64,000 bases of DNA from a virus. Shown here one piece after another: positions 1 through 6,572 of this stretch. Under the pieces are notes generated by a model that did not search any database, was not told the origin of the DNA, and worked only from the letters and a program-made list of their open reading frames with translations. The first letter of the stretch is position 1. Every line of letters begins with the position of its first letter. A program made the translations under genes and the position numbers. The DNA lies in IMG/VR virus record IMGVR_UViG_3300036770_003135, positions 1-64,000 of that record; one strand, written 5' to 3'.

Positions 1-85
1 TTTCTCGTTTGTCGGTCAAAGAAAATTCAATCATTTCTCCATAACCATTCAGTTTAATCTTTTCTGGTAAATTCATATTTTTCAT
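1..85 (-). CDS. Cassette gene, 5' part only (MKNMNLPEKIKLNGYGEMIEFSLTDKRE...)
   Basis: ATG at 85 just inside the cassette arm ending at AAC 113-115; open frame to the window edge. Confidence 0.55.
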   Translation of the reverse strand, partial: MKNMNLPEKIKLNGYGEMIEFSLTDKRE

Positions 86-112
86 TTGTATAAAATTTTT
101 GATACTAAATAT

Positions 113-158
113 AACAAAGAATATGTGCCATTAAAACGAACACATATTCTCAACCGTT
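113..158. repeat. attC-like hairpin A1 (short loop)
   Basis: AAC-aa-agaatatgtg...cacatattct-caacc-GTT; loop contains cattaaaacg. Confidence 0.8.
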
Positions 159-171
159 ATAATTAATAAAA

Positions 172-249
172 TTATTTAGGTATCCAAAACCCTTGAATTG
201 TCTGTTTTACTTCAATAAATACTATTCCGTTTGCTGTTCTTATCCACAT
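172..249 (-). CDS. 25-aa cassette micro-protein MWIRTANGIVFIEVKQTIQGFWIPK
   Basis: ATG-TAA ORF fills the module between GTT 156 and AAC 268; not in the ORF track. Confidence 0.5.
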   Translation of the reverse strand: MWIRTANGIVFIEVKQTIQGFWIPK

Positions 250-265
250 AATTTTACGATTTTAT

Positions 266-348
266 AACAAGGTATATGTGAAATACCTTATAAAGTTTTT
301 ACTAAATTTTAAGTTTGTTGTTAGGTACTTCACATATACCCAACCGTT
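266..348. repeat. attC-like hairpin A2
   Basis: AAC-aa-ggtatatgtgaaatacct...aggtacttcacatatacc-caacc-GTT. Confidence 0.8.
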
Positions 349-360
349 ATGAGTAATAAT

Positions 361-606
361 TTAAAATTTATTTATTATTTTATTTTCAATATACTCTTTA
401 ACTTTTGATGGTAATATTTGTGTTGGAAATGACCCTTCAGCACCAACATACATTTCACTACTTGCGACATCACTTGCATCTATTTTATAATATTGTTCAT
501 CTGGTGAGCATATTGTTACATGAGTTACCTCACCCCATCTACCAGAACCAACCCAATAAAACCATAGGTCATTTCCAATATGTATTTTTCTTTTCGTTTT
601 TTTCAT
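361..606 (-). CDS. Cassette hypothetical protein (81 aa)
   Basis: ORF fills module 346-637. Confidence 0.7.
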   Translation of the reverse strand: MKKTKRKIHIGNDLWFYWVGSGRWGEVTHVTICSPDEQYYKIDASDVASSEMYVGAEGSFPTQILPSKVKEYIENKIINKF

Positions 607-634
607 AGGTATAAATTTTAAATTACATACTTAT

Positions 635-680
635 AACAGCAAATATATTACATTAAAACGACAATATATTTGCGACCGTT
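635..680. repeat. attC-like hairpin A3 (short loop)
   Basis: AAC-a-gcaaatatatt-acattaaaacgac-aatatatttgc-gacc-GTT. Confidence 0.8.
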
Positions 681-690
681 ATAAGTAATA

Positions 691-960
691 TTATTTTTGT
701 TTTGAGTCCATATATTCTTTCACATAAGCAGAATGTGTGTCTCGCATATTCTGTTCAAGTTTTCTCATTTCATCAATATGTTCTTTTGTAAGTTCAAATA
801 TTCTCATTTCAGATTGCTCGACACCCATTCCAAATGTTGGATGTTGTGGTTCGTTACGTTTTTCGTCTTCTGTTAATTCTCTTGAATTGTTTGTTTTGAA
901 TGTTTCATATGATTCTCTCGCATCCAACATTTCTTTCTTTAATTGTTCTAATTTTTCCAT
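691..960 (-). CDS. Cassette hypothetical protein (89 aa, helical/charged)
   Basis: ORF fills module 678-1009. Confidence 0.7.
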   Translation of the reverse strand: MEKLEQLKKEMLDARESYETFKTNNSRELTEDEKRNEPQHPTFGMGVEQSEMRIFELTKEHIDEMRKLEQNMRDTHSAYVKEYMDSKQK

Positions 961-1006
961 AATTTATATTTTTTTAATAGGTAAAACAAAAATAATACTC
1001 ACTTAT

Positions 1007-1092
1007 AACAAGGTGTATAAGTAATTTTTTTACAAAGGTACGAATAAGTTTTGGTATTTCCAAATAAAAAACTACATATACACCCAACCGTT
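1007..1092. repeat. attC-like hairpin A4 (promoter in loop)
   Basis: AAC-aa-ggtgtataagtaattttt...aaaaactacatatacacc-caacc-GTT. Confidence 0.8.
1033..1064 (-). promoter_or_regulatory. Bacteroidota primary-sigma promoter (-33 TTTG / -7 TAnnTTTG)
   Basis: Minus strand reads TTTG-gaaataccaaaacttattcg (20 nt)-TACCTTTG, an exact consensus with correct spacing. Confidence 0.75.
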
Positions 1093-1100
1093 AGCAGAAA

Positions 1101-1277
1101 TTACCGCCTAAACTTTTTACTTCTATCCTTTGGGTATAGTGCTTTCATTAACTTTTTATGTTCTTTTTCACTTATCTGCGATGTCGGTAACTCTCCGCTA
1201 ACAGCAGGTTTGTGAAATAAACCACTTTCGATTTCTCCGTAAGTTGGTAGTGATTTGAATGTTCTGTTATTCTTCAT
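1101..1277 (-). CDS. 58-aa chimeric cassette protein spanning a GTT junction (MKNNRTFKSLPTYGEIESGLFHKPA-V-SGELPTSQISEKEHKKLMKALYPKDRSKKFRR)
   Basis: Hand translation. ATG lies in the A5 loop after an A-rich leader; the junction GTT is the Val codon; the stop lies in the far arm of module 1090-1202. Confidence 0.6.
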   Translation of the reverse strand: MKNNRTFKSLPTYGEIESGLFHKPAVSGELPTSQISEKEHKKLMKALYPKDRSKKFRR

Positions 1278-1322
1278 ATATTTTAATTGTTAAATGTTTA
1301 CTTCACAAACCTGCGAAACGTT
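1200..1322. repeat. attC-like hairpin A5 (start codon and N-terminal coding sequence in loop)
   Basis: AAC-a-gcaggtttgtgaaataaac...gtttacttcacaaacctgc-gaaac-GTT. Confidence 0.8.
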
Positions 1323-1530
1323 ATAACCCATTCAACACATCTACAATCTTCTGTGAAATATCTTTTGGTAGTTTATCCCAATTCCAACTCATAAAGTTAT
1401 ATAAAACAATTCCTTCGTCTTCACATTCAATAGAAGATATTTCACCATCTTCATTAACAATCCAAGTTCTATCTAAAAAAGATGAACGGGCCGTGTAATC
1501 AACATTTTCGTTCTTATTATCTTTATTCAT
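1321..1530 (-). CDS. Cassette hypothetical protein (69 aa), probably a fixed hairpin/gene fusion
   Basis: Stop codon is the TAA of the TAAC core; start lies in the loop of degenerate hairpin A6. Confidence 0.6.
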   Translation of the reverse strand: MNKDNKNENVDYTARSSFLDRTWIVNEDGEISSIECEDEGIVLYNFMSWNWDKLPKDISQKIVDVLNGL

Positions 1531-1559
1531 ATTATTTAAGTTTTGTATTTCAATTTAGG

Positions 1560-1586
1560 AAAAAACTACATATATCCGTAACCGTT
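1560..1586. repeat. Half of attC-like hairpin A6 (partner arm eroded near 1485-1500)
   Basis: aaaaaactacatatatccgtaacc-GTT resembles the right arm of A4. Confidence 0.65.
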
Positions 1587-1605
1587 ATGCTTAATTTTAA
1601 AAATT

Positions 1606-1902
1606 TTATGAATTTGTTTTATGCTTCGCAATCCACTCATCATAAGTTAGTGTATTAGATTGTAAATACTTTTTAGCAATTTCAGCGTTATATTGTCTAT
1701 TTTCTTCCATTAAATTACCATCCCTAAACATTTCACCTGTTTTAATTGCTTTCCAATCTAAACCACCTTTCCATTCAACAATTAACATTTGAGACATTAC
1801 ATCTTTTAAATGTTCTTGTGTTGTTGTTTCGCTTTGCATATTTATAAAACCATCAGTTACTTGTTTCATATATGTTTCATATTCTTTTTGATATTCTCTC
1901 AT
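1606..1902 (-). CDS. Cassette hypothetical protein (98 aa)
   Basis: ORF fills module 1584-1940. Confidence 0.7.
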   Translation of the reverse strand: MREYQKEYETYMKQVTDGFINMQSETTTQEHLKDVMSQMLIVEWKGGLDWKAIKTGEMFRDGNLMEENRQYNAEIAKKYLQSNTLTYDEWIAKHKTNS

Positions 1903-1937
1903 TTTTTATTTGTATAAAATTTTTAAAACTAAAACAT

Positions 1938-1983
1938 AACAACAAATATATTGCATTAAAACGACAATATATTTGCAGAAGTT
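1938..1983. repeat. attC-like hairpin A7 (short loop)
   Basis: AAC-aa-caaatatattg-cattaaaacga-caatatatttg-cagaa-GTT; nearly identical to A3. Confidence 0.8.
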
Positions 1984-1993
1984 ATAGGTAATA

Positions 1994-2182
1994 TTAAAAT
2001 TTGCTTTTAACATCATCTACGAACTTTTGTAAACTTATTTCTTCATCATCCTGATATAGTTTGCCATCTTTTAATTCTGCTACTACGTCATCGCCATTCA
2101 TATAATTCCAAAAGTTTACAAAAGTTCTACCATCACCAACAACGTGAAGTTCGATTTCTATTTTTAATCTTTTTTCTTCCAT
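1994..2182 (-). CDS. Cassette hypothetical protein (62 aa), first gene of the array
   Basis: ORF fills module 1981-2207. Confidence 0.7.
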   Translation of the reverse strand: MEEKRLKIEIELHVVGDGRTFVNFWNYMNGDDVVAELKDGKLYQDDEEISLQKFVDDVKSKF

Positions 2183-2219
2183 ATCAAATTTTAATACATA
2201 CCTATATTACTCATTTTAT

Positions 2220-2672
2220 CTAATTTTTTCTTCCATCAAATACAACAATCATACTATCTTTTGTACCACTTTGTACTTTACCCTTTGAATTTACAGGATA
2301 ATAAAAATTACCATCATTATCAACTTTCCCAAATTTAATCCTTCCCCTTACAAATTCAATTTCAGTCGCATTTGGTTTAATATAATCGTGAAATAACCTT
2401 GTGGAGGTGGAAACTGGTATCAAAAATACACAAACTTTTCCCTTCTTCATCTCCTCAATCCCTTTCTTAATAAAGGCCTCCTTTAACTTCTGACTATATG
2501 GGGGATTTATGAAATTTGACATCCCCCATTCAATATTTAAACCATCAATATCAACATCTTTCTCATTGTATGGACAAGGGTCAAAATCAAATTTAAACCT
2601 CTTGTTTAACTCCTCATAAAATTCTGGGGGAGTTGCATAATTATCATCATTATTAATGTGAATCTTTTTCAT
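2220..2672 (-). CDS. Phage DNA N6-adenine methyltransferase (T1/HP1 Dam-like)
   Basis: YATP, FDFDPCP, NPPY catalytic motif, VFLIP and GRIKF motifs. Confidence 0.85.
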   Translation of the reverse strand: MKKIHINNDDNYATPPEFYEELNKRFKFDFDPCPYNEKDVDIDGLNIEWGMSNFINPPYSQKLKEAFIKKGIEEMKKGKVCVFLIPVSTSTRLFHDYIKPNATEIEFVRGRIKFGKVDNDGNFYYPVNSKGKVQSGTKDSMIVVFDGRKN

Positions 2673-3074: not shown

Positions 3075-3923
3075 TTATAAATCTAATTTTAAATTAAAAA
3101 CTTGCGCAATTACATTCATAGGAATTCTAAACTCTTCAAATGTCCCATCCTCTTTCAATAATACGATTATCGCCCCAAAAAGTCCAATATTTTCATATTT
3201 ACTTCCAACCAACATTTTAAACAATAATCTCAAATATAATGGTAGTTGAACATAATAGTGACCCAAAGCATTATTGGGTAACTTATTGAAGGGGTATTTC
3301 ATCGGTTTTGTAAAATGGTTGGATTCAAAGTTTTTAGGTTTATTTGTTTTATAATCAGTTACTATCCAACCTATTTTATTTTTTTCTTCATTTTTTATTA
3401 ACCATAATTTATCTGGTTGTCCTGTATATTTTAATTCTGGATGACCTAAAACAGTTTCCGTATCAAATAAAAGTGCTTTTCTTTCTTTCATAAGATTTAA
3501 AAAGTTAATCCCAGCACTGACCATTCTATCACTCTTTAATATTTGGTCAAAATCACAATCAAAGATTGGTTGTCTAACCTCTTTCTTAATATCAAACATA
3601 TCAAGGGATTTTTGTTCCAATAAAAAGTGGGTTCTACTACCTAAGTTAGTTGAATATGTTCCGGCATCAGACCATTCTTTTAACAATTTTTGTTGTTCTT
3701 CAATATCACCTTTAGCTTTCTTTAATGCAATTTCTTCAGCTGGGAATTCATCATAATAGTTTTTAATTACTTTTGATACTGATTTCCAATCATCTCTAGA
3801 ATTACCATTAAGGTCTAACATAGTGTATTTGTGATGTTCTTCGTCAAACGAAAGTTTTAATTCTTTCCTTTTATCTTCCAAAAAACATTTAATTTCATCT
3901 CTTAATTCAATTAATTCATTCAT
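3075..3923 (-). CDS. PD-(D/E)xK exonuclease (Cas4/lambda-exo-like)
   Basis: SVS...GSRTH, E...GQPD...DYKT, and QLPLY motifs. Confidence 0.8.
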   Translation of the reverse strand: MNELIELRDEIKCFLEDKRKELKLSFDEEHHKYTMLDLNGNSRDDWKSVSKVIKNYYDEFPAEEIALKKAKGDIEEQQKLLKEWSDAGTYSTNLGSRTHFLLEQKSLDMFDIKKEVRQPIFDCDFDQILKSDRMVSAGINFLNLMKERKALLFDTETVLGHPELKYTGQPDKLWLIKNEEKNKIGWIVTDYKTNKPKNFESNHFTKPMKYPFNKLPNNALGHYYVQLPLYLRLLFKMLVGSKYENIGLFGAIIVLLKEDGTFEEFRIPMNVIAQVFNLKLDL

Positions 3924-4477
3924 ATGATTTTATTACTTTTTTTATAATTTTCGTTAGCCCATAGGGGTTGTAAATTAGTATAATGTGATAAACGATAAAC
4001 ATCTTCAATTGTTTGAGCTTGAGATATTGGTATTTTGTGGTCAATATGCCACCCATAAAATCCAAAGTTTTCCCAACTCATCCCATCTTTAAATTGTTGT
4101 TCTAAATACATTTTCAATTCATTTGGGGTACAACCAACAAAATCTATAGTTTTATTCAATGAAGTATTAAAATTCTTACTTTTTAAGAAAAGTTTCAATC
4201 TATTTCTTACAGAAATTTTAATCTTATAAATAAGGTCATTATTTCTACGTTTTGTTTCTCGTAAATTTCTGTTTTTTTTCGTTATATCTTTATTTTTTAA
4301 TTGATAATTGGTTTGTCTTTCAATTTCTTTTTTTTGATTTTTGTAATAAAAATTTTTGTATTCCCCTGACGTACATAAACGACATCGATATCTCAACCCA
4401 TCTTTTGAATATTTATCCTTATTAAATTCACAAAGTGATTTTTCAACCCCACATTTTTTACATACTTTTGTTTCCAT
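3920..4477 (-). CDS. HNH endonuclease with N-terminal Zn finger
   Basis: CKKC...CRLC; WHIDHKIP...HYTNLQPLWANENYKK. Confidence 0.85.
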   Translation of the reverse strand: METKVCKKCGVEKSLCEFNKDKYSKDGLRYRCRLCTSGEYKNFYYKNQKKEIERQTNYQLKNKDITKKNRNLRETKRRNNDLIYKIKISVRNRLKLFLKSKNFNTSLNKTIDFVGCTPNELKMYLEQQFKDGMSWENFGFYGWHIDHKIPISQAQTIEDVYRLSHYTNLQPLWANENYKKSNKII

Positions 4478-4616
4478 TTTTATAGTCTTTGAGTAATTTA
4501 TTTACTAAAGAAGATAAATTAATATGTTGTTGTCGAAAATAGTTTAGTAATTCAGGTTCTAATGCAACTGATACTTTTGTTTTCTTTTCGTTTTCATTTT
4601 TGATTTTTCTTCCCAT
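4458..4616 (-). CDS. Small ribbon-helix-helix-like DNA-binding protein (52 aa)
   Basis: MGRKIKNENEKKTKVSVALEPELLNYFRQQHINLSSLVNKLLKDY...; alternating beta strand followed by two helices; paralog at 6304-6459; missing from the track. Confidence 0.7.
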   Translation of the reverse strand: MGRKIKNENEKKTKVSVALEPELLNYFRQQHINLSSLVNKLLKDYKNGNKSM

Positions 4617-4667
4617 ATAATATAAATATAATCAAATTTATAAAAGTGTGAATATTCACATTTTTTT

Positions 4668-5570
4668 TTATTTTATTTCAATATAATATTCATTTATTTG
4701 TCCCCTCAAATCGGCAATATCCTTGTCCAAAGGTAGTTTAACTATTTTAATTTTTCCATATAAATTCCCACCATTTAACTCGTGATACAATTTGATTGCA
4801 TTATTCCAAGCATCACCATCCAAGGCAATTGTTATATTACCATTACACTTTTCATATAAGGTATCAAATAATAATGAACTCATATGTTTTCCCAACATTG
4901 GAATACTATTTGGAATGAATATTGAATCAAATGCACCTTCAACTAGGGTAATATCTTTATTCCAATCAATCAAACTCTCAAAGAATATGATTTCATCTTT
5001 TGGATTTTCAGGGTTTTTATATTTTGCTTTTGTATGTAAATCCCAACTTCTGGCAATATAGTAATTTAATTTGTTATTTTTATCATAAGATGGGATTATT
5101 ATTCTACCAGCGTGACTACCATTATCACAAAAACCGATTCCATATCTTTCAATTATTTCATCGGTAATACCCCTATTCATTAAATAATTATATGCTTGTC
5201 TTCTTACTGGGTATATTGATGAGACCTCATTGAACTTCCGATAAAAACTCGGTAGTTCAAGTTTGTTTACCTTTTTCTTTTGTATTGGTTTGTTTTCTTC
5301 TGGTAAAAAAGTACTTAACAATTTTAATTGTTTTTTATTACCATATCTTTTTACTAATTTATGAATAGTACCATGAGTATCATTCACTTCTGAACAAGAC
5401 CAACATTTCCAAACTCCTTGAAAAATATTAACTTCTAGGTTTCCTTTGTTTCTATCTTCATCACATTCTTTACAATTGAACCCATATTGACCTTTACTTT
5501 CATATGATTTTTTTGGGTCTCCCAAAATATCCGTTAATACATCCAACAAAACTTCATTACCATCATCCAT
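4668..5570 (-). CDS. DNA primase (DnaG/T4 gp61-like)
   Basis: N-terminal CxxC...CxxC, YLMNRGI, RIIIP, KYKNP; TOPRIM VEGAFD and LDGD. Confidence 0.9.
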   Translation of the reverse strand: MDDGNEVLLDVLTDILGDPKKSYESKGQYGFNCKECDEDRNKGNLEVNIFQGVWKCWSCSEVNDTHGTIHKLVKRYGNKKQLKLLSTFLPEENKPIQKKKVNKLELPSFYRKFNEVSSIYPVRRQAYNYLMNRGITDEIIERYGIGFCDNGSHAGRIIIPSYDKNNKLNYYIARSWDLHTKAKYKNPENPKDEIIFFESLIDWNKDITLVEGAFDSIFIPNSIPMLGKHMSSLLFDTLYEKCNGNITIALDGDAWNNAIKLYHELNGGNLYGKIKIVKLPLDKDIADLRGQINEYYIEIK

Positions 5571-5576
5571 AAAATA

Positions 5577-6317
5577 TTATTCATCTATATTTTCTAAAAT
5601 TATTTTTTTTCCTTTTTTTAAGTTTTCGATTGCACTTAATGGTCTCAAATTAGTGTAATGCCATAATTCAAATAAACTTTGTTCATCCTTTGCTGAACTT
5701 AATGGAACTATATGGTCAATATGCCATGTTGCCTTACCCCAATTTTCCCAAGTCATCCAACTTTCAAATTGACTTTCGATATATTCTTTTAATCCATTTA
5801 TTGAAGTACCTAATATTTCTTCTAACCTTTTATTTCGTTTTTTCCTTTTTAATGAAATATAAATGTCTGTTCTTAATTTGGTTTTCAATTTGAAGAATAT
5901 ATCTTCTTTTTTCCTTTGAAAAAATCGTTCTTTAGTTCTTTTTAAAATTTTTTCTTTGTTTTTTTCATAATATTCTTTTCTTTTTTTTGATAATTTTTCT
6001 TTATTTTCGTTTTTGTATTTTTTTATATATTCTTTTCTTTTTTCTGGATTTTCTTTCATCCATCTTTTTGTCCTCTCTTTTCGTTTTTCCCTTTCTTTCT
6101 TAATCCTTTCCCTATCCTTCATCAAGTTTTCTTGATGATTTTCATAATATTTTTGACTTCGTTTTTTAGATATTTCTTCACGATTATCTTCAACATATTT
6201 TTTACCAATAGGTTTCCTACATTCCTTACAGATAGTATTGTACCCATCTTTTTGAAATTTATGTTTGTGGAATTCAGTAAATTGTTTTTCAACTTTACAT
6301 ATGTTACATATTTTCAT
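5577..6317 (-). CDS. HNH endonuclease with Zn finger and Lys/Glu-rich helical linker
   Basis: CNIC...CKEC; WHIDHIVP...HYTNLRPLSAIENLKK; ATG 6317 preferred over TTG 6323. Confidence 0.85.
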   Translation of the reverse strand: MKICNICKVEKQFTEFHKHKFQKDGYNTICKECRKPIGKKYVEDNREEISKKRSQKYYENHQENLMKDRERIKKEREKRKERTKRWMKENPEKRKEYIKKYKNENKEKLSKKRKEYYEKNKEKILKRTKERFFQRKKEDIFFKLKTKLRTDIYISLKRKKRNKRLEEILGTSINGLKEYIESQFESWMTWENWGKATWHIDHIVPLSSAKDEQSLFELWHYTNLRPLSAIENLKKGKKIILENIDE

Positions 6318-6459
6318 TATCAAAGTATTCTTTTAATAATTTATTTGTTAGTGACGATAAATTAATATGTTTTTCCCTAATTATTTTTTCAATTTTTGGG
6401 TCAACAGTAATTGACAATCTAATTTTTTTTTCTTCAGTTTTAATTTTTTTTCGTCCCAT
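6304..6459 (-). CDS. Small ribbon-helix-helix-like DNA-binding protein (51 aa)
   Basis: MGRKKIKTEEKKIRLSITVDPKIEKIIREKHINLSSLTNKLLKEYF...; paralog of 4458-4616; missing from the track. Confidence 0.7.
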   Translation of the reverse strand: MGRKKIKTEEKKIRLSITVDPKIEKIIREKHINLSSLTNKLLKEYFDNENM

Positions 6460-6572
6460 ATATAATAAATACATTATTTAGTGTAAAAGTATCATTTTTT
6501 TTTGAAATATTATATAATTTCCATTCACAAAGTTTTCTTACCTAATATATTTATTAAAAACAATTTTGTCAA

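Follow-up and report, generated by a model that had tools for sequence, protein, structure and literature searches.

Terminal inverted repeats of tiny phage gene cassettes as the probable split outer stems of attC-like sites in an integron-like array

In classical integrons, recombination sites carry 7-bp cores and extrahelical bases that are read by a special segment of the integrase IntI. Xer recombination on folded single-stranded DNA is known from the attP site of the CTX phage, and the pdif modules of Acinetobacter plasmids are genes bounded by inverted sites; both of these systems depend on XerCD of the host and on dif-like sites of 28 bp whose sequence is conserved. In this work we analyzed bases 1 to 64,000 of a 102,792-bp viral contig (IMG/VR record IMGVR_UViG_3300036770_003135); this whole stretch is called the window, and its position 1 is the contig start. 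The window begins with a row of tiny gene modules that carry module-specific inverted repeats at their ends (arms) and are separated by hairpin elements. We consider it probable that positions 1 to 2207 belong to an integron-like array of a giant phage, of which they form the part away from the recombinase, and that the inverted repeats are the split outer part of each cassette's own attC-like site. The phage itself probably belongs to the phages of Bacteroidota. We show how these sites are built and how specific they are for the cassette, where the cassettes begin and end, that such arrays are associated with a short Xer-type recombinase and an attI-like site, and that folding favors one strand.

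Our literature searches found no description of this phage system and gave only Qi et al. 2023 (PMC9892861) and the papers on PeSLs (PMC2839356, PMC4122927). The former reports clusters of attC sites without an integrase (CALINs) from virulent phages, one of them a Polaribacter (Bacteroidota) phage, and found that IntI1 recombined some of the sites when they were delivered as single strands. The array described here resembles these CALINs, as far as the incomplete contig shows, in being a phage-borne cluster of attC-type sites without an IntI gene, but the section of that paper considered here makes no mention of extended pairing between a cassette's own ends, of an Xer-type recombinase, or of an attI-like site. 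The PeSLs of T4-type phages are units of promoter and terminator that undergo homology-driven recombination, and shuffling and mini-circles have been reported for them (PMC2839356, PMC4122927). They share with the present array the small open reading frames (ORFs) of unknown function in hypervariable phage regions, with stem-loop-containing repeats between them, but lack a dedicated recombinase, a 4-nt crossover core, and end pairing that is specific to the unit. Among phage systems, the PeSL cassettes (PMC2839356) come closest to the array, apart from their recombination by homology. What our analysis adds is a quantified anatomy of the split stem, a fixed pair at position 11, a compensation of stability between the parts of the site, and the recognition of module and hairpin as one unit.

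The contig is 35% complete (CheckV) and has a G+C content of about 29%, with 28% in the array region. The array lies at the extreme contig start, and the contig end cuts through it. Its genes are small and located on the minus strand, with hairpin elements between them. Read on the plus strand, a hairpin element consists of TAAC, 1 to 2 unpaired nt, a stem-loop-stem, 4 to 5 unpaired nt, and GTTA. Such elements are found at 111-160, 264-350, 633-682, 1005-1094, 1198-1324, and 1936-1985, and half an element is present at about 1540-1588. A cassette, again on the plus strand, is made up of G|TTA, the downstream arm, the antisense gene, the upstream arm, TAAC, the hairpin, and G. The array is composed of the following units.

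1 to 160, minus strand: cassette truncated by the contig end; 5' portion of a gene with its start codon at 73-75, upstream arm at about 86-115, hairpin site 111-160.
157 to 346, strand not applicable: cassette 1; no ORF of at least 30 amino acids (aa), downstream arm 156-175, upstream arm 248-268, hairpin site 264-350.
347 to 678, minus strand: cassette 2; arms 346-370 and 612-637, gene 361-606 (81 aa), hairpin site 633-682.
679 to 1090, minus strand: cassette 3; arms 678-703 and 983-1009, gene 691-960 (89 aa), hairpin site 1005-1094.
1091 to 1320, minus strand: cassette 4; arms 1090-1106 and 1185-1202, hairpin site 1198-1324, 58-aa ORF at 1101-1277.
1321 to 1584, minus strand: cassette 5, eroded; gene 1321-1530 (69 aa), upstream arm missing, hairpin reduced to its 3' half (about 1540-1588).
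1585 to 1981, minus strand: cassette 6; arms 1584-1609 and 1914-1940, gene 1606-1902 (98 aa), hairpin site 1936-1985.
1982 to 2206, minus strand: cassette 7, at the recombinase-distal array end; arms 1981-2002 and 2185-2206, gene 1994-2182 (62 aa), no TAAC core and no hairpin.

Further copies of the array were not found in the remaining 100 kb of the 102.8-kb contig. An Rfam scan of the window gave no family and a tRNA scan gave no tRNA, while a blastn search with window positions 1 to 2300 against cultured phage records gave no match. The six cassette proteins matched no family in PHROGs or Pfam.

All five arm pairs listed in an initial annotation of the window were recovered at their positions, and we identified a sixth pair at 1981-2002 and 2185-2206. 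That every module carries such repeats holds for these six pairs, but not for 1320-1584, which has no upstream arm and only half a hairpin. A repeat finder that allows no gaps also recovers distal parts of the arms, at 357-371/611-625 and 689-703/983-997 (both 100%) as well as at 1591-1609/1914-1932 (95%) and 167-182/241-256 (81%). Within the window, the distal scores of the six own pairs range from 5 to 14 with a mean of 11.0; the 30 mismatched pairs have a mean of 1.2 and a maximum of 7. We extended this comparison to 298 unique cassettes from related phage contigs, gathered by a pattern scan and by protein-guided scans of viral contigs. Positions 5 to 10 agree at 5 or 6 of the 6 positions in 74% of own pairs, compared to 5.7% of pairs between array neighbors and 4.4% of random pairs. 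Likewise, a distal score of at least 8 is reached by 28% of own pairs, 1% of array neighbors, and 0.5% of random pairs. The arms are module-specific, as had been annotated, and complementarity beyond 7 bp is much higher within modules than between them. The pairing goes far beyond the 7 bp of the classical R''/R' pair, and the site architecture is unlike that of the textbook attC, in agreement with the initial annotation.

The 117 unique hairpins of the family are 47 to 164 nt in length and display TAAC...GTTA cores, an internal loop of 1 to 2 by 4 to 5 nt, and an inner stem with a median of 20 pairs. In 217 of 220 cassettes, position 11 reads A in the downstream arm but G in the upstream one, and in 186 of the 220 this A/G difference is followed by T in both arms. 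The distal stem comprises 3 to 19 bp with a bimodal distribution (about 5 or about 16 pairs), and the window cassettes belong to the long class. The arm length of about 20 to 25 bp that had been noted is characteristic of this class (20 to 27 nt), but about 71% of cassettes pair over only about 13 to 21 nt. Similarly, each of the six window pairs has the extra base in its upstream arm, but across the family this holds for only 47 of the 220 cassettes (21%), and the extra base is not a property of the family. The location of stop codons within the downstream arm proved general, applying to all five window genes and to 50 of 61 cassettes across the family.

Folding was computed with DNA parameters, and each site with joined ends was compared with the same site in its array context. 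When the ends of a cassette are joined, they form a single continuous hairpin of three segments, the outer stem, a 10-bp core stem, and the inner stem, with the gene as a large loop. This is a lollipop and not the dumbbell that had been proposed for an excised cassette. Joined-end sites average -26.5 kcal/mol, compared to -17.7 kcal/mol in the array, a mean gain of 8.8 kcal/mol, and are the more stable form in 215 of 219 cassettes. For the window sites, the values are -20 to -30 kcal/mol with joined ends and -10 to -21 kcal/mol in the array context. An AT-rich 10-bp stem goes together with a longer distal stem (correlation with proximal GC, rho -0.44, p 5e-12), and so does a weak inner hairpin (correlation with its energy, rho 0.24, p 2.5e-4). 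Due to this compensation, it looks as if the stability of the entire composite hairpin were under selection. The inner stems read on the plus strand contain 190 A.C pairs and 37 G.T pairs, which means that the minus strand, that of the genes, has the wobble pairs and folds better. The fixed pair at position 11 obeys the same rule, with G.T on the gene strand and A.C on the other. A promoter motif is found in the sense direction in 11 of 86 long hairpins and in the antisense direction in 2, where shuffled sequences lead one to expect 0.17. In the window, the loop of hairpin 1005-1094 displays TTTG-N20-TAccTTTG, the Bacteroidota promoter consensus, on the gene strand (1033-1064, minus).

Comparison with other arrays identifies the boundaries of the cassettes. 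Window positions 156-349 are 93.9% identical to a stretch of locus L142, and the match runs from GTTA to GTTA; the L142 copy of cassette 1 is located directly at the attI-like site, beside the recombinase gene. Positions 1584-1987 match L130 at 92% identity, also from one GTTA to the other, and the L130 copy of cassette 6 comes first in its array, adjoining the attI-like site and the recombinase. Positions 328-697, which hold cassette 2 (347-678), are 92.5% identical to L127-L129, present in three contigs including G002, with neighbors that differ from those of the window on both sides. This last block extends past both of its GTTA cores, by 18 nt on the left and by about 15 nt on the right, which we attribute to the similar hairpin halves and arms of the neighboring cassettes. 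Blocks shared between arrays have a sharp end at GTTA +0 to +9 on one side. Each of the two GTTA-bounded shared cassettes corresponds to a gene module together with its recombinase-distal hairpin, and the cassette that adjoins the attI-like site lacks a hairpin on its inner side. In addition, the downstream arm covaries with the family of the far (right) hairpin at 15%, compared to 6% for the adjacent (left) hairpin and a background of 5%. Together, the GTTA-bounded cassettes and this covariation indicate that the mobile unit is the gene module plus one hairpin, both traveling together. The suggestion that either type of module might move separately finds no support in the same shared cassettes, in the first cassette at the attI-like site, or in the association of the downstream arm with the far hairpin. 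An assignment of each hairpin to the gene upstream of it, as in the classical orientation, was also considered and dropped, as the breakpoints and the attI junction show the opposite.

In assembled contigs of several metagenomes, from lakes, the subsurface, and other sources, the hairpins and arms recur around other genes (for the arms, joints 357>625, 702>984, and 1600>1923). The summed depth of these contigs is many-fold higher over hairpins and arms than over genes (201-400, 601-700, 1001-1100, and 1501-1600), an excess seen in runs of three studies, from the subsurface, from fungus-associated material, and from lake water. These elements are therefore common to many phages in those samples.

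The individual cassettes display a number of irregularities. In the eroded cassette (1320-1588), the gene at 1321-1530 has kept its downstream core, positions 1510-1588 match the 3' halves of hairpins elsewhere, and 1540-1588 resembles the 3' half of hairpin 1005-1094. The 58-aa ORF of cassette 4 (1101-1277, minus) starts in the loop of hairpin 1198-1324, crosses the inner stem and the core at 1198-1202, and has its stop codon in the downstream arm of module 1090-1202. Cassette 7 has kept its upstream arm and lost the TAAC-hairpin-GT part (window 2185-2215 reads cctata|ttactc). The distal array ends of two related contigs, G001 and G002, are ragged and revealed no rule. A contig from run X4 fuses position 159, the end of GTTA, to position 2207, with an overlap of just 24 letters on the shorter side; this joint would correspond to an array end from which the seven cassettes are absent. 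Within the 62-aa gene (1994-2182), the coding sequence contains a perfect 16-nt inverted repeat at 2021-2036 and 2112-2127. Finally, locus L131 (reverse complement, about 1470-1900) harbors a 90%-identical copy of the 98-aa cassette gene with the GTTA core and the downstream arm; this copy lacks the upstream arm and the hairpin, and their place immediately upstream is taken by a tRNA gene.

The contig breaks within the array, with six and a half hairpin sites present, on the side where its relatives have a recombinase gene. In G001, G002, and G004, a tyrosine recombinase of 266 to 268 aa, with a SAM-like N-domain and a catalytic domain, is encoded about 300 bp from the array end. On the profile TIGR02249 it scores 151 to 161 bits (cut-off 265) in two separate stretches; its best match is XerA, end to end, and it aligns to IntI4 (PDB 2a3v) over residues 21-180 only. 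A match to the IntI profile in two pieces and collinearity with a protein of XerA length leave no room for the IntI-specific segment and indicate that the array-linked enzyme lacks it. Among 75 viral loci that encode a relative of this recombinase (identity of at least 48%), 320 hairpins are located upstream of the gene on the opposite strand, compared to 24 upstream on the same strand, 13 downstream on the opposite strand, and 18 downstream on the same strand. Upstream sequence of at least 1.5 kb is available for 60 loci, and 57 of these have two or more hairpins. About 55 to 65 nt ahead of the recombinase start codon, these relatives conserve TATATA-N(2-4)-TA|GTTA, and past that GTTA the sequences diverge at once into typical downstream arms. 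Judged by this pattern in the relatives, the motif represents the attI-like junction, and that of the window's phage is placed beyond the contig end. Among the 168 oriented ORFs, 165 point toward the recombinase and 3 are inverted.

As for the distribution of the enzyme, the best relatives in cellular genomes are at most 48% identical, come mostly from metagenome bins, and in few cases have upstream hairpins. Cellulophaga phage Ingeline and Polaribacter phage Freya encode integrases that are 37 to 40% identical and have GTTA-type junctions; a quick look at the stretch examined in these two phages revealed no clear array. The 362-kb genome G003 (locus L081), which has terminal repeats and is rated complete, harbors hairpin-bounded cassettes and has no PF00589 match. 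Some complete phage genomes, such as this one, thus seem to carry arrays without a recombinase of their own.

These features allow a comparison with classical integrons. Both systems have a tyrosine recombinase gene adjoining a conserved attI-like site, a one-directional array of small cassettes, and imperfect palindromes with AAC...GTT cores and a crossover within the GTT core; in both, the cassette start is complementary to its own far core, and one strand is the better folder. As judged by their layout, the phage sites are built like attC, with AAC/GTT cores on the outside, a spacer that is unpaired, and a stem on the inside. In integrons, a single folded strand recombines and replication resolves the product; for the phage sites, the pair bias of 190 to 37 in favor of folding of the gene strand is at most an indirect sign of such a process. 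Their cassettes are bounded at the GTT core, with first bases complementary to the far core, one of the three shared blocks overrunning this limit, and an attI-like site next to the recombinase, where the first cassette begins, is present in the relatives. On the other hand, the enzyme of the phage arrays is of XerA length and without the IntI-specific segment. The ORFs are antisense to the classical orientation, by 165 to 3, a mirror image in which each hairpin comes before its gene and the genes are directed at the recombinase. Classical cassettes contain promoterless ORFs read from a promoter at the integrase end, whereas some of the phage hairpin loops carry promoter-like motifs. Furthermore, the own-end pairing of the phage cassettes extends over 10 bp plus 3 to 19 bp instead of 7 bp and includes the fixed A/G difference at position 11, the internal loop measures 1 to 2 by 4 to 5 nt, and the carrier is a virus. 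As far as these sequences tell, the layout works like an integron, but it departs from one in two defining features, the IntI-specific segment and the ORF orientation. As at CTX attP, an Xer-type enzyme would act on a hairpin in place of a two-arm site whose center is unpaired, and as in pdif modules, the genes are bounded by inverted sites. The difference from both CTX and pdif is that the arms of the phage arrays vary in sequence and that the enzyme is phage-encoded and located beside the array.

If these arrays operate as integrons do, the attC-like site would be opened at a crossover in GTTA when a cassette is spliced into the array, and its two outer halves would for that reason come to lie at opposite ends of the cassette. 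Once the ends are joined in an excised circle, or the gene is looped out on single-stranded DNA, the halves would reunite in one long imperfect hairpin. The outer part of this hairpin would consist of the distal stem of 3 to 19 bp, followed by the fixed G.T (A.C) pair at position 11 with or without a bulged base. Its inner part would comprise the 10-bp stem starting from the invariant GTTA/TAAC, the internal loop of 1 to 2 by 4 to 5 nt, and the inner stem-loop. The crossover position would make the gene strand the counterpart of the "bottom" strand of integrons, and cleavage would be expected at TAA|C. We infer that the phage recombinase recombines the folded gene-sense strand at TAA|C and that the outer stem stabilizes the AT-rich site; perhaps it also orients the site. 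A further proposal, which we consider possible but doubtful, is that the outer stem, the G.T (A.C) pair at position 11, and the optional bulge act as a selector of strand and polarity. They would then replace the extrahelical bases and the extra IntI helix, so that a plain Xer-type enzyme would suffice. In the same proposal, own-end pairing within the array, with the gene looped out, would assemble the excision substrate, which is speculation, and each cassette would have an excision switch of its own.

A number of observations weigh against an integron-like array. A tyrosine recombinase (PF00589) had no match in the 102.8-kb contig, which is 35% complete and cut inside the array. Neither an excised circle nor a recombination product was seen, in assembled contigs in which rare circular junctions could not show. 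Good proximal pairing is absent in 26% of the parsed cassettes. Within the array the 10-bp stem is mostly unpaired (2.3 of 6), which leaves the recognition of the excision site unexplained. The hairpin families combine with many different arms, so that the link between arm and hairpin is loose (15%). Among 13 pairs of homologous gene modules, the shared hairpin is on the right only in 4, on the left only in 2, on both sides in 3, and on neither side in 4; 13 pairs are too few to decide between linkage to the left or right hairpin, and the comparison of arms with hairpin families was used instead. Moreover, the strand that folds better is also the mRNA strand, and the G.T bias therefore fits RNA structure equally well.

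This raises the possibility that the arms function at the RNA level, pairing in the transcript and enclosing each ORF in a closed stem, with recombination a separate matter. The stem could be a processing site of the RNase III type, protect against exonucleases, or control the ribosome-binding region, and the intergenic hairpins could be terminators or stabilizers. The better-folding strand is indeed the coding strand, on which the fixed position-11 pair is a wobble of the G.U type; the upstream arm stops just short of the start codon, the stop codon falls inside the downstream arm, and Bacteroidota-type promoter motifs occur in some hairpin loops, in the sense direction (11 of 86, against 2 antisense). 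However, a transcript begun in a hairpin loop would miss the 5' half of that hairpin, and an RNA function accounts neither for homology between contigs that breaks at the 4-nt core or at most about 20 nt from it nor for arrays that end at a recombinase gene with a conserved attI-like site. We regard it as unlikely. The breaks at the core, which is common to otherwise unlike sites, also argue against a PeSL-like explanation, in which the hairpin and upstream arm form a promoter and terminator unit, homologous recombination shuffles the genes as in T4-type phages, and arm pairing is a by-product. Blocks shared between arrays often consist of hairpin, upstream arm, and 5' leader with a differing gene, the same arms surround other genes in the metagenome contigs (357>625, 702>984, and 1600>1923), and mini-circles are known from PeSLs too (PMC2839356). 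Homologous recombination, though, would neither create nor keep the end-to-end complementarity of each unit, the promoter motif is limited to 11 of the 86 long hairpins, and a dedicated recombinase and an attI-like site are tightly tied to the arrays. Such an explanation is quite improbable.

Terminal inverted repeats of 20 to 27 nt with a conserved GTTA tip are also what one would see if the gene module were a small transposon or an element resembling a MITE, moved by a transposase. Target-site duplications are not found flanking the units, no transposase is encoded near the arrays, where the neighboring enzyme is a tyrosine recombinase, and the unit common to different contigs takes in the adjacent hairpin. 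The arms, apart from GTTA, differ between elements and yet stay complementary, which is the hallmark of a recognized structure and not of a transposase-binding sequence. We consider this origin very improbable. Chance complementarity of AT-rich gene ends has in its favor the 28% G+C of the region; it is refuted by the own pairs, which score far above neighbor and random pairs drawn from the same AT-rich arrays, and its likelihood is close to nil.

An integron-like array remains our preferred reading, and on it a large family of phage arrays seems to run the cassette logic of integrons with a short Xer-type enzyme and a much longer, split, cassette-specific stem. If the outer stem is functional, it would represent a way to build a folded-DNA site in very AT-rich DNA and would offer a handle on what a recombinase needs at hairpins, such as stem length, the position-11 pair, and the bulge. 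It would also bear on the origin of cassettes and their sites, as both ends would have to stay complementary. The arrays mark a reservoir of very small phage genes, hundreds in number and without a known function, which phages apparently exchange and which possibly include genes for host takeover or counter-defense.

Genes flanking the array in the window include those for Dam, an exonuclease, HNH-type proteins, and a primase, and tblastn searches with them against the array regions of G001, G002, and G004 gave no match. In window 3920-6474, two HNH-type genes (3920-4477 and 5577-6323) are located on either side of a primase-like gene (4668-5570). The two HNH-type genes are preceded by small paralogous ORFs (4458-4616 and 6304-6474) that share the motif ...INLSSL.NKLLK.Y.

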